Sequence record: PZ809289.1
From: a phage
DNA: 64,000 nucleotides
Direction: 5' to 3' (one strand)
Under the pieces are notes generated by a model. It had not been told where the DNA came from, did not search any database, and saw nothing but the letters and a program-made list of their open reading frames with translations. The position numbers were made by a program, and so were the translations under genes. Shown here one piece after another: positions 4,925 through 56,681 of the stretch. Each line of letters starts with the position of its first letter. Position 1 is the first letter of the stretch.

Positions 4925-5464
4925 ATGAAAAAAGTATTAGCCACTTTACTATTGACAGTTAGTATGTCTGCCTATAGCGTAGAGCCTACTTTCAACAGTG
5001 AGCAACTCGACAATTTGCATTATGCATATGCTTTCGGTGAACAATACCAAAAGTCGGGAAAGTTCAAAGAAACCCCTAATCAAAAAGGATTAGGATATAT
5101 TATGGCCGGATTACTATGGCAGGAATCATCCGCCGGAATTAATCAAGGTTTAAATAAAGATAAGCACCATGCTTATGGCATGTTCCAAAATTACTTGCCT
5201 ACGTTAAGAAGTCGTGTTCAACAGGTAGGTTGGAAGATGTCTGACAAAGAAATAATTCGTATGGTCCAAAAACGACAGAACAGTGCCTCTTGGGCCTACA
5301 TTGAGCTGTCTTATTGGATTGATGTTCACAAAGGTGACCTGAGAAAAGCGATTGCTTCTTATAATGCGGGCTGGAACGTCAAAGCAGGCAGTAAATATGC
5401 TTCTGAAGTTCTAGAAAAGGCCAATTATCTAAAATCTAAAAAGATGTTTGAGGCGGTGTATTAA
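4925..5464 (+). CDS. Secreted lytic-transglycosylase-like protein (SLT fold), 179 aa
   Basis: N-terminal signal peptide MKKVLATLLLTVSMSAYS; catalytic-type E-S motif (LLWQESSAGINQG) and AYNAG motif of family-1 lytic transglycosylases. Confidence 0.7.
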   Translation: MKKVLATLLLTVSMSAYSVEPTFNSEQLDNLHYAYAFGEQYQKSGKFKETPNQKGLGYIMAGLLWQESSAGINQGLNKDKHHAYGMFQNYLPTLRSRVQQVGWKMSDKEIIRMVQKRQNSASWAYIELSYWIDVHKGDLRKAIASYNAGWNVKAGSKYASEVLEKANYLKSKKMFEAVY

Positions 5465-5821
5465 ATGATTAAGCAGATGACTATAGCGCTTATGTTGATT
5501 GCTCCGGGAGTATTAGCGTCACAAGTTGGTGATAGTAATAATTCAATTGTCGAGTATGCTACCCGTACAGCAAAAGATTATTGTCATCCGAGCAATACTG
5601 AATGCATTATCGAATTCAGTTCAAAAATCACAGCTGCTTTTAAAGATGGCCAGAACGACGTAGAGCATCGCCGAATGAAAGAGAAAACTCTTTCTAAAAG
5701 ATACGAGCAACGTCTAAACGTTACTGAATGTATTCCATCTGATAAAAAGTACAAAGAAATGTGCGCGTCTATGGTAGACAGACTCGTTGACTCATACAAC
5801 CGAGGATTAAACTCTAAATGA
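5465..5821 (+). CDS. Secreted/periplasmic hypothetical protein (118 aa)
   Basis: Signal-peptide-like N-terminus MIKQMTIALMLIAPGVLASQ; TAAATG coupling. Confidence 0.55.
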   Translation: MIKQMTIALMLIAPGVLASQVGDSNNSIVEYATRTAKDYCHPSNTECIIEFSSKITAAFKDGQNDVEHRRMKEKTLSKRYEQRLNVTECIPSDKKYKEMCASMVDRLVDSYNRGLNSK

Positions 5822-6660: not shown

Positions 6661-7398
6661 ATGGCAAAGGAATTCCATTATAATTACTTGACTGTAATAA
6701 AAACCCATAAGGCAAATTATTACTATGTAGGTAAACACTCCACTGATAATCTTTCAGACGGGTATTATGGAAGTGGTACGGTAGTTAAAAATATTTGTAA
6801 AAAGCATCCTTATAAAACTCGTATATTAGAATTCTTCGAATCTGAAGAAGAGGCGTATGCCGCCGAAATTCCTTTAGTTGAAAAGGCTAAATTAAAATAT
6901 GGTAAGCATTCTTTAAATTTTGCTGATGGCGGAAGAGGTAAAAAGAAAGGAACCAAATTATCTAATTTAACTAAACAGAAAATGTCTAGGTCTAGAAAAG
7001 GAGTTAAATGGAGCAAAGCCAGAATAGAAGCTTCTAAATTCACCACTTCTAATAAAGGTTTAAACCATTATTCCAATAGAATAGGATTTAGTGATGAGCA
7101 TAAAGCTAAAATAGGATTAGCCTCTAAAAAATTAAAAGGATTTAAACATAGCGCTGAAACCATAGAAAATATGAGTAACGCCAAAAAGGGCAAAAAGAAT
7201 CCCATGTACGGTAAAAAGGGCGCTATGGCAGGAAAACCTTCTCCTATAAGAAACGAATCTTGGAAATTTTACGATGAATTAAAACTCTTATGGGAAGAAT
7301 CCAATAAGCCTTCAGCATATATGTTTAAAAAGATAGCTATAAGCAAAGGTTATCCTAATTGCTCTTATAGAGGAGTTGTATTTAAATGGCAAGCTTGA
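6661..7398 (+). CDS. GIY-YIG homing endonuclease (Seg-like) with NUMOD3-type repeats
   Basis: YNYLTVIKTHKANYYYVGKHS GIY-YIG core; repeated NPMYGKKG-type motifs; inserted just upstream of tk. Confidence 0.75.
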   Translation: MAKEFHYNYLTVIKTHKANYYYVGKHSTDNLSDGYYGSGTVVKNICKKHPYKTRILEFFESEEEAYAAEIPLVEKAKLKYGKHSLNFADGGRGKKKGTKLSNLTKQKMSRSRKGVKWSKARIEASKFTTSNKGLNHYSNRIGFSDEHKAKIGLASKKLKGFKHSAETIENMSNAKKGKKNPMYGKKGAMAGKPSPIRNESWKFYDELKLLWEESNKPSAYMFKKIAISKGYPNCSYRGVVFKWQA

Positions 7399-7958
7399 TG
7401 TTTCACTATGCGGCGATGAATTCCGGGAAAACCGCTTCATTGCTAACGGCAGCTCATAACTACAAAGAACGTGGTATGGGCGTACTCCTTTTAAAGCCTG
7501 CGATAGACAATAGAGAATCAAGCCATAGCATTTCGTCTCGTATAGGGATTAGTCAAGAGGCTAATGCCGTGACTCCGGATATGGACCTATACGAGTTCTA
7601 TCGTTGGGCTGAATCTCAAAAAGATATCCACTGTGTATTTGTGGATGAAGCACAGTTCTTAGAACCTGCACAGATAAAACAACTGGCAAAGATAGTAGAC
7701 AATTATAATGTTCCGGTTATGTGCTATGGACTAAGAACTGATTTTCAGGGTAAACTGTTTCCTGGCTCTGCTGAATTACTCGCTACAGCAGATAAACTCG
7801 TTGAGTACAAAGGTGTGTGCCATTGCGGCCGTAAAGCTACTATGACGGCTCGTATCCAGGATGGTATCGCAATTAAGGACGGCGCCCAAGTTTCTATAGG
7901 TGGCAACGATTCTTACGTGTCATTGTGCAGGAAGCACTGGATAGAAATAACGAGTTGA
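7386..7958 (+). CDS. tk: Thymidine kinase
   Basis: MASLMFHYAAMNSGKTASLLTAAHNYKERGM... with Walker A and C-terminal zinc ribbon CHCGRKAT...C; matches T4 Tk. Confidence 0.95.
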   Translation: MASLMFHYAAMNSGKTASLLTAAHNYKERGMGVLLLKPAIDNRESSHSISSRIGISQEANAVTPDMDLYEFYRWAESQKDIHCVFVDEAQFLEPAQIKQLAKIVDNYNVPVMCYGLRTDFQGKLFPGSAELLATADKLVEYKGVCHCGRKATMTARIQDGIAIKDGAQVSIGGNDSYVSLCRKHWIEITS

Positions 7959-7965
7959 GGGTATT

Positions 7966-8244
7966 ATGGACCTAAATTCAAAGATTTTAATTCTAGCGTT
8001 CGCTGTGGCCATTTCTTATATTGTTCTTTCGCCTATCATGGATGATGTGGCTTACAAAAGAGAGATAGAGGTTGTAGCAGCGACGTATAATGCTAATAAT
8101 AAAGAGTGTCCTAATAAAAATGGGATGGATTTAATTAAAGCGCATTATATGCTTTCCATTACCTCGCCTATACAGAGGAATTGGGTTGAATATAATTTTA
8201 ACGACGTGTTCTATTCTTATTGTCGTAAGCTTAAAAAGCTATAA
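7966..8244 (+). CDS. Hypothetical membrane-anchored protein (92 aa)
   Basis: Hydrophobic N-terminus ILILAFAVAISYIVL. Confidence 0.5.
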   Translation: MDLNSKILILAFAVAISYIVLSPIMDDVAYKREIEVVAATYNANNKECPNKNGMDLIKAHYMLSITSPIQRNWVEYNFNDVFYSYCRKLKKL

Positions 8245-8247
8245 ATA
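8240..8247 (+). promoter_or_regulatory. T4-type late promoter box TATAAATA
   Basis: Exact TATAAATA about 90 nt upstream of lipoprotein ORF 8337. Confidence 0.4.
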
Positions 8248-8336
8248 ATAATACTAACCGTAGAGCTTTAGCTTTTGGTAATCGCTATCGGTTAAGGCCG
8301 AAAGGCAAATAGTATAAAACAACAAAGGACTTTTGT

Positions 8337-8630
8337 ATGGATATTTTCCGTACAGCGGCTTGTATCCTTATGGCGGGATGTTTAAGCCCTACAGTTTCAC
8401 TAGCAAATAATACCAATGATAAATTGATGGATGCATTTGCTAGTAGTGCGATGCCTGTTTATGCGCAAATGAGTAGACCCAGCGTAAAGGCCTCCGAAGA
8501 CTATTGGGCCTATGTTACGGCTTCCTGGAAGATTTCAAGTTGTCGGACTATAGAAGCGTGCTCAATTGAAGGTCGGGCCATCGGAGAGCGTTATGTAAAA
8601 CTAATGAAGGTGGAAGATGAAGTTCAATGA
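8337..8630 (+). CDS. Predicted lipoprotein (97 aa)
   Basis: Lipobox ILMAGC near N-terminus; RBS AAAGGA. Confidence 0.55.
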   Translation: MDIFRTAACILMAGCLSPTVSLANNTNDKLMDAFASSAMPVYAQMSRPSVKASEDYWAYVTASWKISSCRTIEACSIEGRAIGERYVKLMKVEDEVQ

Positions 8631-9000
8631 TTTCGTACCCGGTCGAGGGTCTGAAGTGGATTCTTATATTGGTTGGCTACTGGTTTCTTTAGCCTATTTT
8701 AAGTCAGCCCATTTAGAAACCAAAAGCTATGCAAGACACAAAGCGTATGACTTCTATTATGTAGAAGTTCAAGGACCGCTGGACCAATTTAGTGAGCAAT
8801 ATCTTGGGTTCAGTGGCAAAGAATATAAAGCATCATTACCGTCTGCTTCAGACTTGCCTAAGGACCCGGTAGATTTTCTTGACGAGCTTCTTAAAGCATC
8901 TGATAAAATCTATGACACCCTTCCTAAGGCCATCCAGTCGACTTTGGACGATATCACTGGCGTCTTTTACCAGACTAAGTATTTGCTGACGTTAGAATAA
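8617..9000 (+). CDS. Hypothetical protein (127 aa)
   Basis: RBS GGTGGA; overlaps upstream ORF end. Confidence 0.5.
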   Translation: MKFNDFVPGRGSEVDSYIGWLLVSLAYFKSAHLETKSYARHKAYDFYYVEVQGPLDQFSEQYLGFSGKEYKASLPSASDLPKDPVDFLDELLKASDKIYDTLPKAIQSTLDDITGVFYQTKYLLTLE

Positions 9001-9005
9001 TCAAA

Positions 9006-9031
9006 GGTCTCACTTCGGTGGGACCTTTTTT
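9006..9031 (+). terminator. Rho-independent terminator (8-bp stem, UUCG tetraloop, U6)
   Basis: GGTCTCAC-TTCG-GTGGGACC followed by TTTTTT. Confidence 0.8.
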
Positions 9032-9040
9032 CGTTTAGGT

Positions 9041-9069
9041 GTTTACATCCTCTAGGAACATGATACTAT
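9041..9069 (+). promoter_or_regulatory. Early promoter (PeSL-like)
   Basis: GTTTAC 9041-9046, TG-extended TACTAT 9064-9069, CCTATCAAC box. Confidence 0.6.
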
Positions 9070-9097
9070 AGACCTATCAACTAATGAGGAGAACAGT

Positions 9098-9334
9098 ATG
9101 AAACTTACAAGTACTACGGTTTCATTAGAATATGAAATCAACGGTCGTATCCTTGAGATTAAGATATTCGACGACCGAAGTATCTTCGCTGATTATCGAG
9201 GATACAGAATTCGTCTAGAAAAGGACGAGCTCAAGGAACCGTGGCTCCTTAAAGACACATTAAAGGGTTGTGGATGTAAACTGAATACTACTCAAGCCCA
9301 AGAATTAATTTCTACTATCAACAAATACTGGTGA
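9098..9334 (+). CDS. Hypothetical protein (78 aa)
   Basis: RBS GAGGAG; first gene after promoter. Confidence 0.55.
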   Translation: MKLTSTTVSLEYEINGRILEIKIFDDRSIFADYRGYRIRLEKDELKEPWLLKDTLKGCGCKLNTTQAQELISTINKYW

Positions 9335-9338
9335 TATT

Positions 9339-9521
9339 ATGTTAACTACTGAACAGATTGAACAAATCCTTAAACTAGCTACTGCTATTGAACGTGATTC
9401 TTATGATAGTGCAGTAGAACATTGCGAAGGCTATTCATATTCCGCAATAGAGCAGTGTAAACGAGATTTGGATAACTCTAAAGCGGCATTGGTTGAGTAT
9501 CTTAATGAGTTGAAAGCATAA
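9339..9521 (+). CDS. Hypothetical protein (60 aa)
   Basis: ORF tightly packed after 9098 gene. Confidence 0.45.
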   Translation: MLTTEQIEQILKLATAIERDSYDSAVEHCEGYSYSAIEQCKRDLDNSKAALVEYLNELKA

Positions 9522-9540
9522 TGGCTGATGGCACAGGAAC

Positions 9541-9642
9541 ATGAAGATGATTTATTACTTAGAACCCTGGGCTTGGTCAACAATGATTATAGGCCCTATT
9601 TTAATCGGTTTATTCTTTTCATGGTTAGTGAGGAAATTGTAA
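9541..9642 (+). CDS. Hypothetical small membrane peptide (33 aa)
   Basis: MKMIYYLEPWAWSTMIIGPILIGLFFSWLVRKL; stop overlaps next start (TAAATG); below ORF-track cutoff. Confidence 0.35.
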   Translation: MKMIYYLEPWAWSTMIIGPILIGLFFSWLVRKL

Positions 9643-9840
9643 ATGTTATACGATCCAAATGGTTGTTCTGAAGATGGTGTGATTGCCCTTTTAGCAGATG
9701 TTGAAGAATCTGACGATGACGTCTTTGTTAAAGATTGGGAAGAAAAAGGTGGAATCACGCTCCAACAAGAAAATGATATGATTTGTCTGAATGCAGACCA
9801 AGTCGAAGAGCTTTATAGTATTTTAAAACATAACCGTTGA
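9643..9840 (+). CDS. Hypothetical very acidic protein (65 aa)
   Basis: ORF; D/E-rich. Confidence 0.5.
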   Translation: MLYDPNGCSEDGVIALLADVEESDDDVFVKDWEEKGGITLQQENDMICLNADQVEELYSILKHNR

Positions 9841-9850
9841 GGAATAGAAA

Positions 9851-10411
9851 ATGATTATTGAAACAACTGAATTGTTTGGCGAACTGTCCGCTGAAGTAGT
9901 TAATAACGCAATTGAGCTTTCACAAGAAGACGATAAAATCGTACTGACTATCGCTGATATTAAACCGCTTTATGATTTAATGGTTTTAGATAGACACGAT
10001 TATCTTAACGGTCGGGCTAGTGCTCCTATCGATATCAATGATGATATGTTTGCCTATATCTATAAAAATGAAACCGGGTTTAATCTGGAAAATGGTATTG
10101 AATGTCTGAGCATCAGCGATTCTGATAAATTCTTTGATTGTATTTTCAAACTGTTCCAGGAAGAATGCAAGCCGGAAGTTGAATGGAAAGTCCCTGGCCA
10201 AGATGCCGTGATTCGTTCTAGTGAAACCTTTGAAGGTGATGAAGAAGAACTGAATTATGATACTGAATTAACCGTGTATCAACATCAGGGCCGTGATTTG
10301 TTATCCTTGACCCAAAGACACGATGGTGAAAGTGAAGTGGTATTTACTAAAGACGAACTAAAAGTTTTAGTCTCTTATCTGAACTCTGTTATCCCAACTA
10401 TGAACTCTTAA
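9851..10411 (+). CDS. Hypothetical acidic protein (186 aa)
   Basis: RBS GAGGAA; strongly acidic composition. Confidence 0.55.
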   Translation: MIIETTELFGELSAEVVNNAIELSQEDDKIVLTIADIKPLYDLMVLDRHDYLNGRASAPIDINDDMFAYIYKNETGFNLENGIECLSISDSDKFFDCIFKLFQEECKPEVEWKVPGQDAVIRSSETFEGDEEELNYDTELTVYQHQGRDLLSLTQRHDGESEVVFTKDELKVLVSYLNSVIPTMNS

Positions 10412-10421
10412 GGAAAATATT

Positions 10422-10874
10422 ATGATTATCAATGCAAACTCTTGGCACGCTAAACTTCATGACCGTTTTTATGACAGTCATTCTCGACCGCACTCTTTAT
10501 GTGCTTACTTCTGGAAAATGGTTTGGGCTTGTTTTGCTTGTGCTGTTGTTGCAGGTAGTACGCTTTTTGGATTAACTGTTGCAGGTGTTGGTGTATTAGA
10601 GCATTTCTTTGTATTAAGTACCCCTGTTCTGTTGAGTCTAGGGTTTGTTTTAGGATTGGTTGCAATAGCTCTTATTATTGCGCTATCCATTGGTTTGGCA
10701 TTAGGTGTGATGAATTTACACGCATGGTATGATGCACGTAGAGAAGAAAAGGAATGGCAACGTATTCAAGCTGAGCGTGAAGGCCGAGAAACTAAAGAAA
10801 ATATCGTTATTCAATACATTAAAGCTCGTAAATCTAAGGTCTGTCCGGTAATCCACTTCGAGGACAAAGAATGA
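10422..10874 (+). CDS. Hypothetical membrane protein (150 aa)
   Basis: Two long hydrophobic segments (VWACFACAVVAGSTLFGLTVAGVGVL..., LLSLGFVLGLVAIALIIALSIGLALGV). Confidence 0.55.
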   Translation: MIINANSWHAKLHDRFYDSHSRPHSLCAYFWKMVWACFACAVVAGSTLFGLTVAGVGVLEHFFVLSTPVLLSLGFVLGLVAIALIIALSIGLALGVMNLHAWYDARREEKEWQRIQAEREGRETKENIVIQYIKARKSKVCPVIHFEDKE

Positions 10875-11881
10875 GAACAGTTATGAAAGGCTACTTCGGT
10901 AGCCACCTTTATGGAACAAGTACTCCGGAATCTGACGTCGATTTTAAAGAAATCTTTGTTCCACATCCGCGTGATATTCTGTTAGGTACGGCTATGAACC
11001 ATACCAACCTGAATACGAATAACACTGCTTCCAAAAACACTAAAGATGATGTTGACCATGAGCTTTACAGCCTGAAATATTTCTTTAAACTAGCGGCTGA
11101 AGGCGAAACCGTTGCTCTGGACATGATTCATACTCCACCTGAACTGGTGGTTAAATCTGATTTACCTGATGTATGGAAATTTATCCAAGACAATCGTTCT
11201 CGGTTCTATACGACTAACATGAAAGCCTATTTAGGGTACGTCCGTAAGCAAGCTTCTAAATATGGTGTTAAGGGTTCTCGACTAGCTGCACTGCGTGGTG
11301 TACTGGCTATTGTTAACCAGATTCCTGAACAGTGGGTCGATTATCAAGAAGATGGTTCGACTAAACAACGTCGTACTAAGGTAGAAGATATTAAACATCG
11401 ACTCCCTGAAAATGAGTTCTGTGAATGGGTATTCCATAACCATGAGAAAACAGGCCCTCAAACGTTCTATACTGTTCTAGGACGTAAGTACCAAACTACT
11501 TTGTCTTTAATCGAGCTCAAGCAATCTCTGAATAAGCTTGATGCTGAATATGGCGAACGTGCTCGTAAGGCTGAAGCTAATGAAGGTATTGACTGGAAAG
11601 CTCTGAGCCATGCTTATCGGGCTGGATATCAATTGTTGGAAATCTACCAAACAGGCGACCTGGTATTCCCATTGCGCGAAGCCTCTATCATTAAGCTGAT
11701 TAAGGCCGGTGAACTTCCATTTAAAGAGGTCCAAGAACTTCTTGAAGACACTGTTGATTTAGTCGAAGTACTGGCTATCCAGGCTCATAAGAACGGTATG
11801 CCTGCTAAGGTAGATATGAAGTTCTGGGACAAGTTTGTTGAAGAGGTATACCTTGACAACCACAACTCTTATTATCGATAA
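10871..11881 (+). CDS. Pol-beta-superfamily (minimal) nucleotidyltransferase-domain protein (336 aa)
   Basis: GSHLYGTSTPESDVDF fits the GS-x9-13-DxD nucleotidyltransferase signature; ATGA coupling. Confidence 0.6.
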   Translation: MRTVMKGYFGSHLYGTSTPESDVDFKEIFVPHPRDILLGTAMNHTNLNTNNTASKNTKDDVDHELYSLKYFFKLAAEGETVALDMIHTPPELVVKSDLPDVWKFIQDNRSRFYTTNMKAYLGYVRKQASKYGVKGSRLAALRGVLAIVNQIPEQWVDYQEDGSTKQRRTKVEDIKHRLPENEFCEWVFHNHEKTGPQTFYTVLGRKYQTTLSLIELKQSLNKLDAEYGERARKAEANEGIDWKALSHAYRAGYQLLEIYQTGDLVFPLREASIIKLIKAGELPFKEVQELLEDTVDLVEVLAIQAHKNGMPAKVDMKFWDKFVEEVYLDNHNSYYR

Positions 11882-11888
11882 CGAAGAA

Positions 11889-12077
11889 ATGAAGGTCTTT
11901 TTATCATATGGAAGACCCCATAAAACCCGACGTTGGTATCTTGAAGCTGTCTGTAAAGAAACCGGACGTCGAGTCAATATCAAGTACGTGTGCAAACCTA
12001 CGCCTAAACAGACAAGACAATTTGTTAACTGGGCTATAAATGATATACGCTTCCATAATTTTTGGAGCGCAATTTAG
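11889..12077 (+). CDS. Hypothetical basic protein (62 aa)
   Basis: ORF between NTase gene and terminator; track start 11835 overlaps upstream gene. Confidence 0.4.
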   Translation: MKVFLSYGRPHKTRRWYLEAVCKETGRRVNIKYVCKPTPKQTRQFVNWAINDIRFHNFWSAI

Positions 12078-15006: not shown

Positions 15007-15222
15007 ATGGAAATTATTGGTTTTATTCTTGCTTATCTTGTGATAGGATTTATTACTGCTTTGATTGCGCATAAAACAGGCGCGTGGAACCCGGTTAAAA
15101 TTGAATCAAGCTATGATGCGGTATTCATTACATTTGTATGGCCAGTATTTTGCTTTGCCTGGTTATGTATGCTAATTCTGTGGCCTATCGCTAAACTCTA
15201 TGAAAAATTATTTGGACTCTGA
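15007..15222 (+). CDS. Hypothetical small membrane protein (71 aa)
   Basis: Two hydrophobic helices; RBS AAGGA. Confidence 0.5.
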   Translation: MEIIGFILAYLVIGFITALIAHKTGAWNPVKIESSYDAVFITFVWPVFCFAWLCMLILWPIAKLYEKLFGL

Positions 15223-17603: not shown

Positions 17604-17867
17604 ATGTTTAAAGTTTATGGTTATGATTCAAATATTCACCGTTGTGTTTTCTGTGATAATGCCAAACGACTGCTTGATGTTAAGAAACAACCTTACGAAT
17701 TCATTAACGTGATGCCGGAAAAAGGTGTATTTGATGATGAGAAGATTGCTCAACTCCTGGCTGCGCTTGGTCGCGAATCTCAAATCGGTTTGACCATGCC
17801 GCAAGTATTTGCTCCGGACGGAACTTCTATTGGTGGCTTTGACCAACTGCGAGCGTATTTCAAATGA
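17604..17867 (+). CDS. nrdC: Thioredoxin/glutaredoxin NrdC
   Basis: MFKVYGYDSNIHRCVFCDNAKRLLDVKKQPYEFINVMPEKGVFDDEKIAQLL... near-identical to T4 NrdC (87 aa). Confidence 0.9.
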   Translation: MFKVYGYDSNIHRCVFCDNAKRLLDVKKQPYEFINVMPEKGVFDDEKIAQLLAALGRESQIGLTMPQVFAPDGTSIGGFDQLRAYFK

Positions 17868-18034
17868 TTGAATTAATGTTGGTTGTTTTGTATCTTATCA
17901 TCGGTATTGGTTATGCTAAGACCCTAGCTAAATTAGATGATTCAGGTGACTTTTGTTGGTGGTTGACGTCTATGATTTGTTGGCCTTTATTTCTGGTTGG
18001 TGCTTCATTCTGGAACTTCAAATGATTGAATTAA
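17859..18034 (+). repeat. Direct repeat of 18-bp junction TTCAAATGATTGAATTAA flanking a small ORF
   Basis: Copies at 17859-17876 and 18017-18034; each supplies a stop plus overlapping ATG so both downstream ORFs begin MIEL. Confidence 0.7.
17864..18025 (+). CDS. Hypothetical small membrane protein (53 aa)
   Basis: MIELMLVVLYLIIGIGYAKTL...; ATGA coupling with nrdC; not in ORF track (<60 aa). Confidence 0.4.
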   Translation: MIELMLVVLYLIIGIGYAKTLAKLDDSGDFCWWLTSMICWPLFLVGASFWNFK

Positions 18035-19156: not shown

Positions 19157-19278
19157 TTAATTTTTATGGCTACACATTTTATGCTTTAGCCGAATCTCTG
19201 AATGATGCGGTGCGTATTATGGGTGTTGAGTATCCTGCTCAATGGTTATTTGTTGTAACTAACATGTGGGTTCTTTAA
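19153..19278 (+). CDS. Hypothetical small protein (41 aa)
   Basis: ATGA coupling with gene 49; below track cutoff. Confidence 0.35.
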   Translation: MINFYGYTFYALAESLNDAVRIMGVEYPAQWLFVVTNMWVL

Positions 19279-19493
19279 TGAATAAATTTCGTAATGCTGT
19301 TTCTGATATCCTGGCTAATATAACATTGGTTCTGTTTATCGTATGCCTTTTAATCCTGGCTATTCCGTTTGGATTGCTGTTCATGATTATTGGTGCTCTG
19401 AGTACTGAAAAAGGTCTTGAAGGGTCCGAGTTCGACAAACGAATCCAGGCTGTTCATAGTGTTATTGCAAAAATGATGAAGGTGAAAGAATGA
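19278..19493 (+). CDS. Hypothetical membrane protein (71 aa)
   Basis: MNKFRNAVSDILANITLVLFIVCLLILAIPFGLLFMIIGAL; track start is GTG 19266. Confidence 0.5.
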   Translation: MNKFRNAVSDILANITLVLFIVCLLILAIPFGLLFMIIGALSTEKGLEGSEFDKRIQAVHSVIAKMMKVKE

Positions 19494-26068: not shown

Positions 26069-27747
26069 AAACGTTTAAGTTAAAGAAAGTAACGTATAAA
26101 AATATTATGTCGGTAGGCCAGCAACCTATTACAATCCAACTTGATAAGGTCCAAAAGACCTTAGTCACCGGTAAAAACGGCGCTGGTAAATCTACGTTCC
26201 TTGAAGCCGTTACATTTGCTCTGTTCGGTAAGCCTTTTCGTGATGTTAAGAAAGGGCAGTTGATTAACTCAAGTAATAAGAAAGACCTTTTGGTCGAACT
26301 GTGGATGGAATATGATGGCAAAGAATACTATATCAAGCGCGGGCAAAAACCCAATATTTTTGAAATCTCTTGTGGCGGTGAACGTCTTGATGAATCTGCC
26401 AGCAGTAAAGACTTCCAAGCAGAATTTGAACAGCTTATCGGAATGTCATATACCAGTTTCAAACAGATTGTCGTACTTGGTACAGCAGGGTATACCCCTT
26501 TCATGGGTTTGTCGACCCCTGCGCGCCGAAAGCTTGTGGAAGACCTCTTAGAGGTTTCTGTATTAGCGGATATGGACAAGTTGAACAAATCTTTGATTCG
26601 TGAGACTAATAGCCAAATCCAAGTAATCGACGTTAAACAGGATTCTATTATCCAGCAAATTAAAATTTATAATGACAACGAAGAACGTCAGCGTAAATTA
26701 TCAGGTGAGAACGCAGCACGTCTACAAACAATGTACGATGAGCTCGTTAAAGAAGCCAGGACTGCGAAGGGCAATATAGAAAAACTGACTGATGAATTAC
26801 TCAATGTCATCGTCGATGATGACCCTAGCAACTCTATGAGTGACCTGAGCAATAAAGGATTTGCAATCAAGAATGATATGGCAACCTTTACTAAGGTCGT
26901 GAAATTATACGAAACCGGTGGTAGTTGTCCTACATGTATGCAAGGACTGGAAGAGCATGGAAATATCCTTACTAAAATTAAGGATAAGAACTTTGAGCTT
27001 CAAAAATCTTTGGATAAGATTAACGAACAGTACCAAGAACTCAAGCTCATTAAGGACCAAGTAACCGAACAACGTAATAAAGCTCTGGCTATTAAATCTC
27101 AGATAGCTACTCATAAGCAACAAGCCATTACTGCCGTAGAGAAAGCTAAAAAAGTTAAAGTATTAATCGACCAAGCAGCTGCTGAGTTCGTAAGTAATGC
27201 CGAAGAGATTGCCGCGCTTCAAGCAGAGCTTGATAAAATCGTCTCTACCAAATCGTCCTTGGTAATGGAAAAATACCATCGTGGAATTCTGACAGAAATG
27301 TTGAAGGATACTGGTATTAAAGGTTCCATTATTAAGAAATACATTCCTATCTTTAATAAGCAGATAAATTCTTATTTGAAGATTATGGAAGCGGACTACG
27401 TCTTTACACTAGACGAAGAGTTCAATGAGACGATTAAATCACGTGGACGTGAAGACTTTAGTTATGCTTCATTTTCACAGGGTGAGAAAGCACGTATTGA
27501 TATCGCACTACTTTTTACATGGCGCGATATTGCTTCTAAGGTATCAGGTGTTAATATCAGCACGTTAATTCTTGATGAGGTATTTGACAGTGCTACTGAC
27601 GCTGAAGGCGTTAAGACCATTGCAACCATCTTGAATAGCCTTGAGGATACGAACGTGTTCATTATCTCTCACCGAGACCATGACCCACAAGCTTATGGCC
27701 AACATCTTCAAATGAAGAAAGTTGGACGATTCACGGTGATGGAATGA
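26065..27747 (+). CDS. 46: Recombination ATPase subunit gp46 (Rad50/SbcC-like)
   Basis: 560 aa; Walker A GKNGAGKST, Zn-hook CPTC, signature FSQGEKAR, Walker B LILDE; collinear with T4 gp46. Confidence 0.95.
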   Translation: MKTFKLKKVTYKNIMSVGQQPITIQLDKVQKTLVTGKNGAGKSTFLEAVTFALFGKPFRDVKKGQLINSSNKKDLLVELWMEYDGKEYYIKRGQKPNIFEISCGGERLDESASSKDFQAEFEQLIGMSYTSFKQIVVLGTAGYTPFMGLSTPARRKLVEDLLEVSVLADMDKLNKSLIRETNSQIQVIDVKQDSIIQQIKIYNDNEERQRKLSGENAARLQTMYDELVKEARTAKGNIEKLTDELLNVIVDDDPSNSMSDLSNKGFAIKNDMATFTKVVKLYETGGSCPTCMQGLEEHGNILTKIKDKNFELQKSLDKINEQYQELKLIKDQVTEQRNKALAIKSQIATHKQQAITAVEKAKKVKVLIDQAAAEFVSNAEEIAALQAELDKIVSTKSSLVMEKYHRGILTEMLKDTGIKGSIIKKYIPIFNKQINSYLKIMEADYVFTLDEEFNETIKSRGREDFSYASFSQGEKARIDIALLFTWRDIASKVSGVNISTLILDEVFDSATDAEGVKTIATILNSLEDTNVFIISHRDHDPQAYGQHLQMKKVGRFTVME

Positions 27748-34684: not shown

Positions 34685-34921
34685 ATGGAAGCTTTAATCG
34701 TTAGTGCTGGTGTTTTAGGATTCGGTTCTCTGGTTATTATGTTCATCGGTTACTTTTTACCATGGATTCTGGCTCTTCTGCGAGGCACTCGTAGTAATGT
34801 AGGAATTTTCTTCCTTAATCTCCTGTTAGGCTGGACGATGATTGGTTGGGTAGTGGCTTTAATCTGGGCTATCGTCGCTGAACGTAAATCAAACGCACAA
34901 ATCATTATTGTTAAACAATGA
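34685..34921 (+). CDS. imm: Small inner-membrane protein at the T4 imm position (78 aa)
   Basis: Two transmembrane helices; located directly downstream of 43 as T4 imm is; identity by position and topology. Confidence 0.55.
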   Translation: MEALIVSAGVLGFGSLVIMFIGYFLPWILALLRGTRSNVGIFFLNLLLGWTMIGWVVALIWAIVAERKSNAQIIIVKQ

Positions 34922-35055
34922 AAATAATTGTTTTATTTCTTATAATGGCTGCCTTTACCGTTTATTGGGCAGTGGCAATTCCGCCAATGATTCCGACACT
35001 CATCATTGGATGGATTATTCTTATAGCACAAATTAAGTATAACTGTTTTAATTGA
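34918..35055 (+). CDS. Hypothetical hydrophobic peptide (45 aa)
   Basis: MKIIVLFLIMAAFTVYWAVAIPPMIPTLIIGWIILIAQI...; ATGA coupling; below track cutoff. Confidence 0.35.
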   Translation: MKIIVLFLIMAAFTVYWAVAIPPMIPTLIIGWIILIAQIKYNCFN

Positions 35056-35062
35056 GGATATT

Positions 35063-35563
35063 ATGAAAAAGTTAATTATCGCAATGAGTATGCTCCTATC
35101 AGGTTGCGCGGTCCAATATGGTGATACAGTTTCGGCCGATGAAGTTGGTAAAGCTCGTATCGCAGCTGAACAGAAACAATTCGATGGCGAAATGAAATTC
35201 CGTGCAGGTTCTGGACTTGTGTACACCCGAGCTAATAATCAATGCGGTAATAACTGTGCAAAATATGCTCAACAAGAAATCGAATTCCAACGTGAACAAG
35301 AGTCCAAGCGTGAAGCGGTACTAGCCAAACACCAGGCAGAAATGAAGCGTCAAGATGATTTGTACAAAAAGCAGAAACTGTATGCGATGTGCGTAAACCA
35401 TATCAATCTACAGATTTCCATCCACGAGGCTCGTTATTACGAAATGCTCGAAACCGAGAGCTTCGGTAAAGCTCGTGATTATAAGAAACAAATCGATAAG
35501 CTCAAGACCAAAGTACCGGCGGCAATAGAACAGTGTATTGAAATCGGTAAAGATAAGATTTAA
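35063..35563 (+). CDS. Predicted lipoprotein with coiled-coil (166 aa)
   Basis: Lipobox LLSGC after signal sequence MKKLIIAMSM. Confidence 0.55.
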   Translation: MKKLIIAMSMLLSGCAVQYGDTVSADEVGKARIAAEQKQFDGEMKFRAGSGLVYTRANNQCGNNCAKYAQQEIEFQREQESKREAVLAKHQAEMKRQDDLYKKQKLYAMCVNHINLQISIHEARYYEMLETESFGKARDYKKQIDKLKTKVPAAIEQCIEIGKDKI

Positions 35564-35623
35564 GCAATACCAATTTATTAAAAATAGTGTATAATGTACC
35601 TACATTCACTTGAGGAACAGATA

Positions 35624-37297
35624 ATGAAAAAGGTTGTTATTTTAGGCGCGGGTCTTGGCTCACGGTTGTATCCAATTACCAACGAAATCCCGAAGGTACT
35701 GGTTAACTACAAACAACATACTGTATTAAAACATTTGTATGATTTGTATAGTAATCAATCAGATGAAATTATTCTGGTTATTCACAGCAAATTTAACGAC
35801 CTCGTTAAAGGCTATATTAAATCCATTAACATGATTAATAGTGATAAGCCTAAATTCACTATTCGTAACGTTGATGTTGCCAATGGTTCGGCTCATGCTA
35901 TCGATTGCATTGCTGAAGATATCATTGGGCACAATGTCTTGTTTAACTGGTGTGATATTATTCCTGAAGGTCATAAAGTTGAGTGGGATACCGACTACTG
36001 TTATACCTATGGGACCGACTGTCGTTTTACATTTGAAGAACCGTACTTGCGTGAAATTGGTACCGGTGGTGGCGTAGTTGGCTTGTATCAGGTGGCTAAT
36101 TGGACAGGTTTCGACCGTTCTAATTATGGTGAAGACCTTGCTGACAACCTGGATTCAATGGTCCATTTGACTGAACGTAAGTTAGACTTTGTAGTTGATG
36201 TTGGTGACAAACTGAAACTGGCTAAGGCCCATGAAGATTCTGAAATTAACCGTGAATTTAATAAATTAGAGTTCACTGAGAATCTAGCTATTAAAGTACC
36301 TACAAACGAATTAGGTAAAGAAATCCAATCTAAAGAAATCAATTGGTACAATTCTATTGATTCTGAATTCGTTCCTAGCATTGTAGACTTTGCTCCAGGT
36401 GAATTCATTAAAATGGAACGTATCTTTGGTCGAACCATGGCAGATGCCTACCGGTTTATGTCTAAAGAAACTAAAGTCCTAATGGTTTATAAGGTTATTA
36501 GTGCATTACGTTCGTTCGGTGGAACTATCGATAATCCGTCCGATGAGCAATGGTATTCTGATGTTAAGAAAGAAGTATTGGACAAGGTCCTTATTCGTAA
36601 TGCTTCTATTGCCGGATTGATTGAAGGCTTTGCTCCACAGGGTATTACCCATGTTAACGACTTCAAGGTAGGCGACCCAGAAAAACTTCTTCGTCACGCC
36701 TTAGAAATTCTGTCTGAACATAAAGAACCGTACCAACTTATTCATGGCGACCCGCACTACAGTAATATTATGTTGTCGGACGAAGGTAATATTAAAATCA
36801 TCGACCCACGTGGTTATTTTGGTAATAGTTCTAAAGGCCCTGCGATTTATGATGAAGCTAAGGTGCTTTATTCTATCGATGGTTATGACAAATTTAACTC
36901 TGACCCTCTATGGGGTGGCTTAACTCGTAACGGAACTCGTGTATTCGTTGATATTGAAAAGGTTATGCCTTTAGATGATATTCCGATGTGTACATTTAAG
37001 CACAAGCTCTGGATTGCTGTTATCTGGATGGCATTGGCAGGTTACTTTAAAAATAACCCTCTGAAAGCTCTGGGCGCTTATTACAATGGGCTATATCAAC
37101 TGAGTGTGCTGCTGAAGCGGCATCCTCGTAAGCGTAAGCTTATCACAGGTGAATTCGTTGATGAAGTTCGCGACCCTATCACGGCTCAAATTATCACTCG
37201 TTGTCCTGATAAGTGGGTTTTGCTTGACCAGGAAACTGGTGTAAAATATAAACCTACAGGTTCTACCGAACTCCACAAACAATGGAAGAAAATTTAA
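35624..37297 (+). CDS. Bifunctional sugar-phosphate nucleotidyltransferase / APH-choline-kinase-like kinase fusion (557 aa)
   Basis: N-terminus KVVILGAGLGSRLYPITNEIPKVLV = G-x-G-x-R-x-P...PK NDP-sugar pyrophosphorylase signature; C-terminus HGDPHYSNIM...IIDPRG = Brenner kinase motif; RBS GAGGAA; track ATG 35594 lies inside TATAAT. Confidence 0.65.
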   Translation: MKKVVILGAGLGSRLYPITNEIPKVLVNYKQHTVLKHLYDLYSNQSDEIILVIHSKFNDLVKGYIKSINMINSDKPKFTIRNVDVANGSAHAIDCIAEDIIGHNVLFNWCDIIPEGHKVEWDTDYCYTYGTDCRFTFEEPYLREIGTGGGVVGLYQVANWTGFDRSNYGEDLADNLDSMVHLTERKLDFVVDVGDKLKLAKAHEDSEINREFNKLEFTENLAIKVPTNELGKEIQSKEINWYNSIDSEFVPSIVDFAPGEFIKMERIFGRTMADAYRFMSKETKVLMVYKVISALRSFGGTIDNPSDEQWYSDVKKEVLDKVLIRNASIAGLIEGFAPQGITHVNDFKVGDPEKLLRHALEILSEHKEPYQLIHGDPHYSNIMLSDEGNIKIIDPRGYFGNSSKGPAIYDEAKVLYSIDGYDKFNSDPLWGGLTRNGTRVFVDIEKVMPLDDIPMCTFKHKLWIAVIWMALAGYFKNNPLKALGAYYNGLYQLSVLLKRHPRKRKLITGEFVDEVRDPITAQIITRCPDKWVLLDQETGVKYKPTGSTELHKQWKKI

Positions 37298-37656
37298 TGC
37301 ATCTGTGTTTTGATATCGATAATACCATTACTCACTGGCAAGATGACCGTGATTACGAAAACTTTAAACCGGACACCGAAATGGTGTCCATGATTAATAA
37401 GCTTTATGATGAAGGGTACGAGATTACCTTGTTCACTGCCCGTGGTATGACTTCATGCGGCCCGGGTCGAATCTTGGTTGAAGTAGTTCCTGCATTAGTT
37501 AAGAACCTTGAAAAGATTGGATTGAAATATCACAATCTGCTTACACATAAGCCGAGTTATACTTTTATCATCGATGACCGAGCAATCCGTCCTGACCACT
37601 TTAAAGAAATGGTTCGTGAAGGAACTCTTGAAACCTATAAGGCATATCATCCGTGA
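37297..37656 (+). CDS. HAD-superfamily phosphatase (119 aa)
   Basis: Motif I FDIDNTIT (DxDxT), later T, K and IIDDR motifs; TAATG coupling. Confidence 0.6.
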   Translation: MHLCFDIDNTITHWQDDRDYENFKPDTEMVSMINKLYDEGYEITLFTARGMTSCGPGRILVEVVPALVKNLEKIGLKYHNLLTHKPSYTFIIDDRAIRPDHFKEMVREGTLETYKAYHP

Positions 37657-38189
37657 AACCAAAAATCATTGTTATCGACGGCCCGGATAATTCCGGGAAG
37701 TCTACTTTAATTGAATCACTTTTATCTGATAAGAAATATCGTCTTATTGATTTCCCTAAAAAGATTAATGGCAAATGCATTTCATTAGGGACTGATAATG
37801 ACAAGGCTTTAGTCGAGACGTTGTATAAGTTTTTAGACCCTAATTTTGTCTACATCTTAGACCGTGGGTATCCTAGTAATATTGTTTACTCTGGATTCCT
37901 TCGTGGTGAAATGGACCCTTATGTAGAACTGGAAGATTGGAAAGGGTTTAAATCTGAATTCAATATTATTGAGGTTATTTTAACCCGTAATCCACTGGAT
38001 AAAGACTTTGAAGATGACCTTATTAAATTAACCAAAGACGAGTTCAACCTAACTATCCGGCAATATGAAACATGTTTTGAAAACGTGTTTAAAATCTTAA
38101 ATCACGACGGCCATAATAACTTGCTTAACGTCGATATGGTAGAATTAAAACGTCTGAATGAATATATTGAAAATAAGGTGAATAAATGA
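37653..38189 (+). CDS. P-loop nucleoside/nucleotide kinase-like protein (178 aa)
   Basis: IVIDGPDNSGKSTL Walker A at residues 6-19, dTMP/dNK-kinase-like; GTG start overlapping upstream stop. Confidence 0.6.
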   Translation: MKPKIIVIDGPDNSGKSTLIESLLSDKKYRLIDFPKKINGKCISLGTDNDKALVETLYKFLDPNFVYILDRGYPSNIVYSGFLRGEMDPYVELEDWKGFKSEFNIIEVILTRNPLDKDFEDDLIKLTKDEFNLTIRQYETCFENVFKILNHDGHNNLLNVDMVELKRLNEYIENKVNK

Positions 38190-38884
38190 AACACATTACC
38201 GCTGTTAGTTTTGAAAACGCGTTTAAGCAAATGAACGAAGAAATCCTGGAAGCCCCACAGTTTGCAGTTGATTCTCGTATCGGCCGTTGTTATGAAATTG
38301 GTTCTGCTTCGGTAGAAGTACTGGATGCAAGCACCTATAAATTCACCGACCCTCGTATTAATCGTATCAACTATGATTATGCCGAATCTTTCTGGAAGTT
38401 TATGATTTCTGGTGGTACTGACGCCGCCGAAGCATTTAAGGAATACCCTAATGTTGCTAAGTTCATTGATAAGCCGAAAAGTGACGTATTGCCTGCAAAC
38501 TTCAACACTTTCTATGGACCTAGAATTGTGGCCCAACTCCCAGCCTTACTTAAAGAGCTTAAAGAGAAGCCTAACTCAAGACGAGTTGTGTTCCAAATTC
38601 TCCAAGAACAAGACCAAGCCCTCCTTGATTCTGACGAATCCTTAGAATATCCATGTACTGATTCAGTGACATATTATATTCGTGATGGACGTCTTTATGC
38701 ACATACCCATATGCGTTCACAGAACTGTGCTATTGTTATGCAGCTGGATTTCTATCTGCAGGGTAAACTGATGGCCTTTATTGCTGAACAGTGTGGTGTT
38801 GGTCTGGGTACGTATTCCCATACTATGGTTAGTGCACACGTATTTGAACGTGATTTTGACTACGTTCGAGGATTCCTGAAATGA
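38186..38884 (+). CDS. 42: dCMP hydroxymethylase-like enzyme (thymidylate-synthase fold)
   Basis: NSRRVVFQ..., YPCTDSVTYYIRD (catalytic Cys), HMRSQNCAIVMQLDF (Asp at the cytosine-specifying position) align with T4 gp42 MCTNTVQYLIRD...MRSNDVVFGFRND. Confidence 0.7.
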   Translation: MKHITAVSFENAFKQMNEEILEAPQFAVDSRIGRCYEIGSASVEVLDASTYKFTDPRINRINYDYAESFWKFMISGGTDAAEAFKEYPNVAKFIDKPKSDVLPANFNTFYGPRIVAQLPALLKELKEKPNSRRVVFQILQEQDQALLDSDESLEYPCTDSVTYYIRDGRLYAHTHMRSQNCAIVMQLDFYLQGKLMAFIAEQCGVGLGTYSHTMVSAHVFERDFDYVRGFLK

Positions 38885-39774
38885 GTTTGTTTATCGTTCC
38901 TATTTTCAGTATGCGTAGTTACGAAACAGGTGAATATGCCGTCCTTAAGGACGGCAATTTTCAACTCCATTTAAACCGTGCTTGCCCAGGTGATTATCTG
39001 GCTTATCCTAGAAATTCGAGCGATATCAAAGAATGCATTGAATTATTTCCTGAACTGAATTTTGTACCTCTTTGGTATAAAGAAAATGCTTATGAAACTC
39101 GTAAACATTTTTGGTCTGAAAATGAGTTCGTTGTTGATTCGTTAATCGAATACTATGACTGCTCAGGATTGGTAACCGATATCACAGGTTATGATGGTGC
39201 TCATACCGTACAATTCAACTTTAACATTACAATGGACCCTGAAGTTCCTCGTTATTACATCGATGAGTTTATTGATACCGACGTGGGTTCAGTTGAACGT
39301 TCGATTTATACTACAGTCTTGAATCAATGTCAGAAAGACGTCCTGGTGTCACGAGGTGCGTCCTCTGATAAGATTTTTGTAGACCAAAAGGTAATTAATC
39401 CGGCAGTAATTGAGCGTTACTCTGAAGGTCTAGCGCCTATTAAAATTGATGGTATTTTCCATCCATTCCGTATCTCTGATAAATGTTATCAATTCGAAAG
39501 AGTTGTAGACCAAGCTGCGGCTGAAGGTTCTCGCCTTTATATCACCGATCCGAATGATTCATTTAAGCGTGAAGACTATCGTCCTGATGTAGAGATTATT
39601 AAATTCAAACCGAGTAAGGTTGAATATTATCAGATTCTGAAATCAAGACCTCATATCATTTATCATGAGAATCCCGGTTTAGTATTCCATCCTGGTCTGG
39701 CTGAATTCATTTATTTCGGTGCCCACATCCATTCTGAGCACGAAATGCCAAGTTATGAGGACGTGGTCCTTTAA
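38881..39774 (+). CDS. Unassigned 297-aa protein in the beta-glucosyltransferase slot (candidate DNA-modifying transferase)
   Basis: ATGA coupling to hydroxymethylase gene; lies between 42 and uvsX; no similarity to T4 beta-gt recognised by eye. Confidence 0.5.
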   Translation: MSLFIVPIFSMRSYETGEYAVLKDGNFQLHLNRACPGDYLAYPRNSSDIKECIELFPELNFVPLWYKENAYETRKHFWSENEFVVDSLIEYYDCSGLVTDITGYDGAHTVQFNFNITMDPEVPRYYIDEFIDTDVGSVERSIYTTVLNQCQKDVLVSRGASSDKIFVDQKVINPAVIERYSEGLAPIKIDGIFHPFRISDKCYQFERVVDQAAAEGSRLYITDPNDSFKREDYRPDVEIIKFKPSKVEYYQILKSRPHIIYHENPGLVFHPGLAEFIYFGAHIHSEHEMPSYEDVVL

Positions 39775-43630: not shown

Positions 43631-43924
43631 ATGAAAAAGTTATTAATCGCAGCAATCCTTACAGTAGCATCATGTGGCACAGCTCCAGTTACGGCTGGAT
43701 TGGATAAAGACCTTTGTGAATGGTCTATGACTGCAGACCAAGAATCGGTTGAACATCAGATTTATGCCGATATCATGAACATCACTAAACGCGACCGCCC
43801 TGATATGGCTAAAGAAGTGTCAGACCAATTAGCTTCAGGTGGTGTTATGCAATATAACCGGAATTTGTATTGTGATGCCAATTTCGATAACAAAAATATC
43901 GTTAAAGAGGTGACAGGTGAATAA
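43631..43924 (+). CDS. Predicted lipoprotein (97 aa)
   Basis: Signal sequence MKKLLIAAILTVASCG with lipobox; RBS GAGGAG. Confidence 0.55.
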   Translation: MKKLLIAAILTVASCGTAPVTAGLDKDLCEWSMTADQESVEHQIYADIMNITKRDRPDMAKEVSDQLASGGVMQYNRNLYCDANFDNKNIVKEVTGE

Positions 43925-56420: not shown

Positions 56421-56681
56421 ATGAAATATATTAATCGTTCTATTGCAGCTCTCGTATTAGCAGTTTCGTTGGTTGGATGTACTGATGCTGATAATGCTAC
56501 CCGTGTATTGGATGCAAATGGCTACGAACAAATCCAAATCACAGGATACAACCTATTCGGCTGTTCTGAAGATGATTTCCAACGTACAGGCTTTATTGCT
56601 GTGGGTCCGACAGGTAAAAGGGTTGAAGGAACAGTTTGTTCTGGGTTATTCTTTAAAAAGTCGACCATTCGATTTGATTAA
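56421..56681 (+). CDS. Predicted lipoprotein (86 aa)
   Basis: Signal sequence with lipobox LVGC. Confidence 0.55.
   Translation: MKYINRSIAALVLAVSLVGCTDADNATRVLDANGYEQIQITGYNLFGCSEDDFQRTGFIAVGPTGKRVEGTVCSGLFFKKSTIRFD

Follow-up and report, generated by a model that had tools for sequence, protein, structure and literature searches.

The open reading frame (ORF) at positions 8337-8630, on the + strand of phage sequence record PZ809289.1, encodes a 97-aa protein that profile searches, similarity to T4 RI, and synteny identify as the product of rI, the gene for a T4-like antiholin and lysis-inhibition regulator. It lies within a stretch of 64,000 nucleotides, referred to here as the window, which is the early-gene region of a T4-like Dhakavirus of the JS98/Bp7/QL01 group (95-98% DNA identity). 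Among the 493 phage records matched in a megablast search of positions 7300-11900, the best matches were Dhakavirus genomes, namely LQ5 and QL01 (98%), WG01 (96.5%), and Bp7 (94.7%).

Comparison with the Bp7 and T4 annotations established that the + strand of the window corresponds to the T4 early-gene strand, along which the genes run e, denV, regB, vs, tk, rI, nrdC.11 ... nrdC ... 55 ... 47, 46, 45, 44, 62, regA, 43, imm, and then ... uvsX, 40, 41, sp, 61, 56, soc ... dda, dexA, motB, 39.1, 39, rIIA, rIIB. This gene-by-gene synteny gives each ORF discussed below a named T4 or Bp7 gene as its point of reference, and the gene identities, synteny, motif presence, and conservation reported here are direct results of the present analysis. 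A gene block absent from T4 occupies positions 35594-39774, between imm.1 and uvsX, and encodes a 567-aa hypothetical protein, three products annotated in their Bp7 equivalents as phosphoheptose isomerase-like, thymidylate kinase-like, and gene 42-like, and a 297-aa hypothetical protein; it stands in the place of T4 beta-gt and may represent an alternative DNA sugar-modification module.

Lipobox and hydrophobic ORFs in the window

The original prediction singled out four ORFs with lipoboxes as small lipoproteins, together with a set of small hydrophobic ORFs, and associated them with superinfection exclusion, receptor masking, or lysis inhibition. All 12 ORFs are present where it placed them and carry the motifs it gave, with LMAGC at residues 11-15 of the 8337 product, LLSGC at 35063, VASC followed by G at 43631, and LVGC at 56421, and the small ORFs are hydrophobic as described, each containing a 19-residue segment with a mean Kyte-Doolittle (KD) value of at least 1.8. 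The share of hydrophobic ORFs is ordinary, since 13 of the 128 ORFs that tile the window have a strongly hydrophobic 19-residue segment; the ORFs at 17864 and 9541 drop out of this tiling, and their strongly hydrophobic segments were seen in a separate scan.

A four-residue lipobox was rejected as significant on its own, because its relaxed form occurs within the first 36 residues of 12 of the 589 ORFs of at least 30 aa, eight of these 12 being junk. The full PROSITE rule PS51257, which combines the pattern {DERK}(6)-[LIVMFWSTAG](2)-[LIVMFYSTAGCQ]-[AGS]-C with a Cys at position 15-35 and a Lys or Arg within the first seven residues, was passed by seven of 1982 start/ORF combinations: the ORFs at 35063, 43631, and 56421, and four junk ORFs on the minus strand. 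Three of the four lipobox ORFs thus conform to the rule, whereas the one at 8337 is a near miss, with nine uncharged residues between R5 and C15 where at least ten are required, and with Met at position -3 of its lipobox-like motif. NCBIfam yielded sub-threshold signal-peptide matches only.

The rI locus

The product of the 8337 ORF matches the Pfam family Antiholin (PF24205) with 84.1 bits against a cut-off of 27 (E 6e-24) and the PHROG family phrog_1246, annotated as lysis inhibition (E 3e-30). It is 25% identical to T4 RI over 91 residues (tblastn, E 2e-6), and its sequence also matches the T4 antiholin chains of crystal structures 6PSK and 6PSH. The gene sits in the T4-like order tk - x - rI - rI.-1 on the early strand, the slot of rI.1 being taken by a different gene. 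An exhaustive HMMER search for the family returned 17 cluster representatives, to which the window ORF and T4 RI were added, and in the resulting alignment of 19 sequences Y42, S49, S53, C69, C75, and G79 are invariant. A word-index search and a viral-contig scan returned only close relatives (at least 80% identical), and the wider family came to light in the exhaustive HMMER search and in a tblastn search of GenBank phages. The protein is predicted to begin with a Sec signal and to continue as a periplasmic domain of some 73-74 residues, which contains the conserved C69 and C75.

About 90 nt upstream of rI, at 8240-8247 (+), lies the T4 late-promoter core motif TATAAATA, of which the window holds only four copies, another of them preceding the late gene soc. 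T4 rI is also transcribed late. Directly upstream of rI, in the position of T4 rI.1, a hydrophobic gene that was missing from the original list (7966-8244, +) encodes a 92-aa protein with an N-terminal transmembrane segment (residues 7-25, KD 2.52) and belongs to phrog_6298 (E 3.5e-37). A phrog_6298 gene also precedes rI in Gaprivervirus VR25, while EcS1, Kc304, and Phi_KR1 retain rI.1. The T4 rI.1 product is a soluble protein of phrog_1826, replaced in the window by a membrane protein. One report links T4 rI.1 to the regulation of lysis inhibition (PMC2962797), and the exchange of rI.1 for the phrog_6298 gene may have a bearing on this process.

Downstream, the rI.-1 (mobD.6) orthologue (8617-9000, +), recognized from the Bp7 and T4 annotations and from direct sequence similarity, overlaps the end of rI and is followed by a terminator-like hairpin at 9003-9028 found in a terminator scan. 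A stretch of KY979109.1, the 62,829-bp record of Salmonella phage SHP1, matches the RI protein with 100% identity; the features that overlap it in that record are labelled "endoribonuclease", which looks like a misannotation.

The RI signal peptide

The predicted Sec signal of the window RI covers residues 1-23 and consists of the n-region MDIFR, the 12-residue h-region TAACILMAGCLS, and the c-region PTVSLA, after which the chain continues with NN. Judged from these features, the length of the h-region and the site SLA23↓N24, with Ser at -3, Ala at -1, and Asn at +1, would fit signal peptidase I well. The first description of T4 RI gave it a signal-anchor-release domain, but the protein was later shown to carry a normal signal peptide, which signal peptidase I cuts after Ala24 at the site IEA↓N and whose processing is blocked by the A24P substitution (PMC8385771). 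The Asn at +1 slows cleavage of T4 RI, and the uncleaved, membrane-bound protein still mediates lysis inhibition (PMC11413866), so a membrane-tethered RI is functionally possible.

We surveyed 25 distinct RI N-termini, including those of the window and T4. Five of them, from Gaprivervirus VR25, Kagamiyamavirus EcS1, Winklervirus Kc304, and the metagenomic sequences P0088 and P0089, pass PS51257. The RI sequences of Phi_KR1 and Lazarusvirus fit the pattern and are excluded by the position or charge requirement, the n-region of Phi_KR1 being uncharged; the window RI and its closest relative fall short of the rule by one residue; P0090 carries its Cys at position 16 and fails the pattern through a Cys at -3; and L041 has Val at -1 before the Cys. 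No Cys is found near positions 13-16 in 13 of the 25 N-termini (T4 and 12 of the 24 others), and the downstream -3/-1 site is kept in every Cys-bearing orthologue. Absence of the Cys, Val at -1, and an uncharged n-region among the orthologues are not compatible with obligatory lipidation. The rule-passing orthologues nonetheless keep the G/A-Cys pair at 31-43% overall identity, a retention that exceeds the usual conservation of a free h-region residue and counts against the signal peptidase I reading. RI signal peptides are in general rich in Cys, with at least one in 14 of the 25 N-termini, often as a C-x5-C pair, regardless of whether a lipobox is formed.

The chief alternative is that the window RI is a true lipoprotein, in which Lgt would acylate Cys15 and signal peptidase II would cut before it, producing a lipid-tethered antiholin instead of the T4 form, which is soluble or transiently anchored. 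Gly at -1 and Ala at -2 give LMAGC the look of a lipobox, but Met is rare at -3, the n-region MDIFR is net neutral, and the run of uncharged residues before the Cys is too short for PS51257. Although Cys15 is invariant across all Dhakavirus-type RI sequences seen, and the orthologues of VR25, EcS1, Kc304, P0088, and P0089 do satisfy that rule, the pre-Cys h-region of the window RI is one residue shorter than in VR25 and P0088 (15 vs 16), which suggests that it is under no signal peptidase II constraint; moreover, a signal peptidase I site occupies the T4-homologous position in every Cys-bearing orthologue, and in still other orthologues the Cys is missing or follows Val. The lysis inhibition retained by membrane-anchored T4 RI (PMC11413866) would speak for a tethered protein, but under the E. 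coli +2 rule a lipoprotein with Leu at +2 would be sorted to the outer membrane and be separated from holin T in the inner membrane. We consider a lipoprotein RI unlikely, and our literature search found no paper describing RI as one. Processing by signal peptidase I is, on the comparison with T4, the best reading for the window RI, and the rule-passing orthologues are relevant to the question, recently under debate, whether RI exerts its action in the membrane-bound state.

Spackle

The 97-aa product of the ORF at 43631-43924 (+) matches the Pfam family T4_Spackle (PF25676) with 141 bits against a cut-off of 27 (E 1.8e-41), is 68% identical to T4 Sp over its full length of 97 residues, and is encoded in the syntenic order 41 - dmd - 61.4 - sp - 61, with C29 and C81 conserved. 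By these sequence criteria, the gene is identified as sp (gene 61.3), coding for Spackle. Its signal peptide contains the lipobox-like VASC15, followed by a signal peptidase I site, VTA↓G, after residue 22. Although the protein passes the PS51257 pattern, its T4 orthologue is cut after residue 22 (PMC7650644): N-terminal sequencing of T4 Sp gave a start at residue 23, with exactly 22 residues removed and soluble release into the periplasm (PMC7650644; PMC7677548). Because T4 Sp is cut at this point, the lipobox look-alike is apparently not used, at least under overexpression.

A lipobox-like Cys recurs in two periplasmic proteins, in RI within the Dhaka-, Gapriver-, Kagamiyama-, Winkler-, and Lazarusvirus lineages and in Spackle within all orthologues seen. 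That these residues are functional, with part or all of both proteins acylated and membrane-tethered in natural infection, seems to us improbable; if true, it would make the antiholin and the lysozyme inhibitor lipoproteins, which overexpression studies on T4 would have missed.

The stronger claim, that all four ORFs including Spackle encode lipoproteins and that soluble T4 Sp is an overexpression artefact or a secondary release product, is in our judgment very improbable. Its starting points are the PS51257 match of Sp and the motif [AS]-S-C15, which does not vary among 19 viral loci with identities as low as 46%, in contrast to the adjacent h-region residues; however, P19 and the -3/-1 residues of the signal peptidase I site are conserved to the same degree as the Cys, and the family is so narrow, its members in 898 phage records being at least 46% identical, that conservation of the Cys carries little weight. 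The sequencing of T4 Sp covered only the soluble periplasmic fraction of the overexpressed protein (PMC7650644), yet it is a direct determination that places the cut after residue 22, and RI, for its part, fails PS51257.

The imm.1 and gp39.1 families

The remaining two lipobox ORFs stand as predicted lipoproteins. The first (35063-35563, +; 166 aa) belongs to the imm.1 family. Its signal peptide, MKKLIIAMSMLLSG followed by C15 with Ala at +2, ends in a canonical LL[SA]GC lipobox and passes PS51257, and L12, G14, and C15 are invariant in 13 aligned sequences, which comprise 11 homologues of 45-88% identity and include T4 Imm.1. A CGNNC motif is conserved in the product, whose C-terminal half is long and helical. 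The possibility that this ORF is unrelated to T4 genes was rejected, because phrog_1754 is common to it and T4 imm.1; the family profile is matched over its full length both by T4 Imm.1 (E 6e-43) and by the window protein (E 3.5e-52), and hhalign aligns the two N-termini with a probability of 93%. The AlphaFold2 (AF2) model has a mean pLDDT of 68, rising above 90 for residues 100-160 in the helical C-terminal half, and no significant PDB neighbour was found for it.

The second (56421-56681, +; 86 aa) belongs to the gp39.1 family, phrog_902. Its signal peptide ends in AVSLVG, followed by C20 with Thr at +2 and Asp at +3. The protein passes PS51257, and C20 is invariant in 34 aligned homologues, where it follows a variable h-region and the motif L-x-[GAS]; of the 72 homologues found, several already bear the name "lipoprotein" in their sources. 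C48 and C73 are invariant in the mature domain, which is about 66 aa long, and its AF2 model (mean pLDDT 79) shows one helix packed on a four-stranded sheet, a fold that occurs in BFVD also in uncharacterised phage proteins, including those of phage PG7 (named "Lipoprotein") and Atu_ph07. The full lipoprotein is kept in other T-even-type members, such as the cluster P0023 with 167 member sequences.

For both families, PDB sequence searches returned nothing meaningful, fold searches gave weak or uninformative matches only, and a literature search gave no relevant papers. In both families the lipobox Cys is invariant across divergent homologues while the h-region varies, and this Cys within a rule-conforming signal peptide makes a convincing case for predicting the 35063 and 56421 products to be lipoproteins. 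Neither has Asp at +2, and outer-membrane sorting is consequently expected. The claim of four lipoproteins is therefore upheld for this pair, while for RI and Spackle it runs against the experiments on their T4 orthologues. As for their roles, a plausible guess would be that the two work in the periplasm as binding proteins or inhibitors, with a part in exclusion or in remodelling of the envelope. As robustly predicted early lipoproteins, they are reasonable candidates for superinfection exclusion.

Imm and the small membrane peptides

The ORF at 34685-34921 (+), adjoining gene 43, encodes the 78-aa superinfection immunity membrane protein Imm, as recognized from identity to the T4 protein and from its match to PF14373 (Imm_superinfect; 65 bits against a cut-off of 27.9, E 5e-18); its hydrophobic segments span residues 3-21 and 46-64. 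Immediately downstream, a 45-aa hydrophobic peptide of phrog_3610 (34918-35055, +; E 1.7e-21) shares 53% identity across 30 residues with a T4 ORF that lies between imm and 42. This conserved hydrophobic ORF of 45-49 aa overlaps the imm stop, and its T4 copy (MKSKIIAALLLILMIIISIYYSVTVPLMIPTIILGWSLLLLQVKYECIN; about 26225-26374, minus strand) is absent from the T4 reference table. The small 71-aa membrane protein encoded at 19278-19493 (+) is the orthologue of T4 gp55.8 (41% identity, E 3e-12; phrog_1930; KD 3.1).

The other small ORFs on the + strand encode a 150-aa protein with three hydrophobic segments (10422-10874; phrog_944; labelled "membrane protein" in Bp7), a 71-aa peptide with two hydrophobic segments (15007-15222; phrog_7899), a 53-aa hydrophobic peptide whose start overlaps the nrdC stop (17864-18025; phrog_6756; equivalent to Bp7 gp189), and a 33-aa hydrophobic peptide, unannotated in Bp7, that matches phrog_12165 over residues 3-33 (9541-9642; E 2.6e-21), the profile beginning at Met3 (position 9547). 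On the minus, or late, strand downstream of gene 61 lies a 66-aa peptide with two hydrophobic segments (45988-46188; phrog_2024, E 6e-28; equivalent to Bp7 gp130). T4 has a phrog_2024 membrane ORF of about 66 aa at about 17740-17940 on the plus strand, between dam and 61 and in the late direction, that is likewise unannotated. By family assignment, the ORFs at 10422, 15007, 17864, 9541, 34918, and 45988(-) are identified as small conserved membrane peptides of PHROG families.

A chance origin of the small ORFs, notably those at 9541 (33 aa), 34918 (45 aa), and 45988(-), is scarcely credible: they are very short, two of the three have no annotated counterpart in the T4 reference, and 9541 is unannotated in Bp7 with a Shine-Dalgarno sequence too close to its ATG, but each has a PHROG match at E <= 1e-21, T4 encodes conserved protein counterparts of 34918 and 45988(-) in syntenic positions although the DNA has diverged, and the starts and stops of the small ORFs abut neighbouring genes, as is usual for T4-type genomes. 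The same limit (E <= 1e-21) holds for the PHROG matches of all 12 listed ORFs, so that none of them is to be regarded as a chance ORF.

Interpretation and comparison with known systems

Taken as a whole, the best explanation, and one that we regard as highly probable, is that positions 8337-8630 carry the Dhakavirus rI, whose product is processed by signal peptidase I, and that the other ORFs are known envelope genes or members of conserved families. RI would be exported through the Sec pathway, its N-terminal 23 residues forming an ordinary, probably slowly cleaved signal peptide that signal peptidase I would cut at SLA↓NN, and LMAGC would be a Cys-containing part of the hydrophobic core of this peptide, not a used lipobox. 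As in T4, the periplasmic domain of about 74 residues, with a C69-C75 disulfide, would bind the periplasmic domain of holin T, whose gene t lies outside the window, and would thereby block hole formation and delay lysis upon superinfection. Spackle would act as a soluble periplasmic inhibitor of the gp5 tail lysozyme of an incoming phage, and Imm as a block to DNA entry at the inner membrane. These processing sites and mechanisms are extrapolated from experiments on T4 orthologues with which the window proteins share no more than 25% (RI) and 68% (Sp) identity.

The envelope functions originally proposed are thereby borne out in part, with lysis inhibition assigned to RI (PF24205) and superinfection exclusion to Imm (PF14373) and Sp (PF25676). 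Nothing supports receptor masking, and a comparison with the receptor-masking lipoproteins T5 Llp and Cor detected no similarity by sequence or fold. By orthology and conserved synteny, the flagged envelope ORFs are already known biology, rI, sp, and imm corresponding to textbook T4 genes. The discovery value is accordingly small, since these are orthologues of well-studied T4 genes and conserved early genes already in public records, some of them labelled "lipoprotein".

The window RI resembles T4 RI (PF24205; 6PSH, 6PSK, 6PX4) in its length of 97 aa, its position from tk to rI.-1, the arrangement of a signal peptide and a periplasmic domain with two invariant Cys, the A↓N cleavage context at the homologous site, and the upstream late-promoter motif. 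It differs in sequence, the two being 25% identical, and in a signal peptide that has C9 and C15, the latter in the lipobox-like LMAGC absent from T4. The loci also differ, the upstream neighbour of rI being the phrog_6298 membrane protein gene in the window and rI.1 in T4. Spackle (sp/61.3; PF25676), in contrast, is a plain orthologue with no notable difference from T4 Sp, sharing 68% identity, the locus between 41 and 61, xASC15, the signal peptidase I site, and the disulfide Cys. Imm (PF14373; phrog_1039) is 43% identical to its T4 counterpart, likewise with two hydrophobic segments and adjoining gene 43.

The imm.1-family protein shares with T4 Imm.1 the family phrog_1754, the lipobox, and the N-terminal motif C-x-Q-G-x-V-x-x-x-[ED]-V-G-K, but it is longer (166 aa vs 125 aa in T4) and about 19% identical overall, and its gene lies downstream of imm in the window and upstream of imm in T4. 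The gp39.1-family protein is 74% identical to T4 gp39.1 (phrog_902) over the mature domain and is likewise encoded upstream of gene 39; in T4, however, the lipobox has been lost (LVGC to LINS) and a 1-nt insertion has occurred, so that a 65-aa signal-less remnant is annotated, whereas the window copy is intact. Within positions 5398-5685 of T4 NC_000866 (minus strand), the signal peptide of 39.1 is still encoded upstream and is 83% identical, the 1-nt insertion creating a stop. With its reference 39.1 degraded, T4 is a poor model for this gene. Finally, T5 Llp and lambdoid Cor are, like the 56421 and 35063 products, small early phage lipoproteins with a disulfide-containing mature domain, and by this analogy the two window proteins might act similarly.
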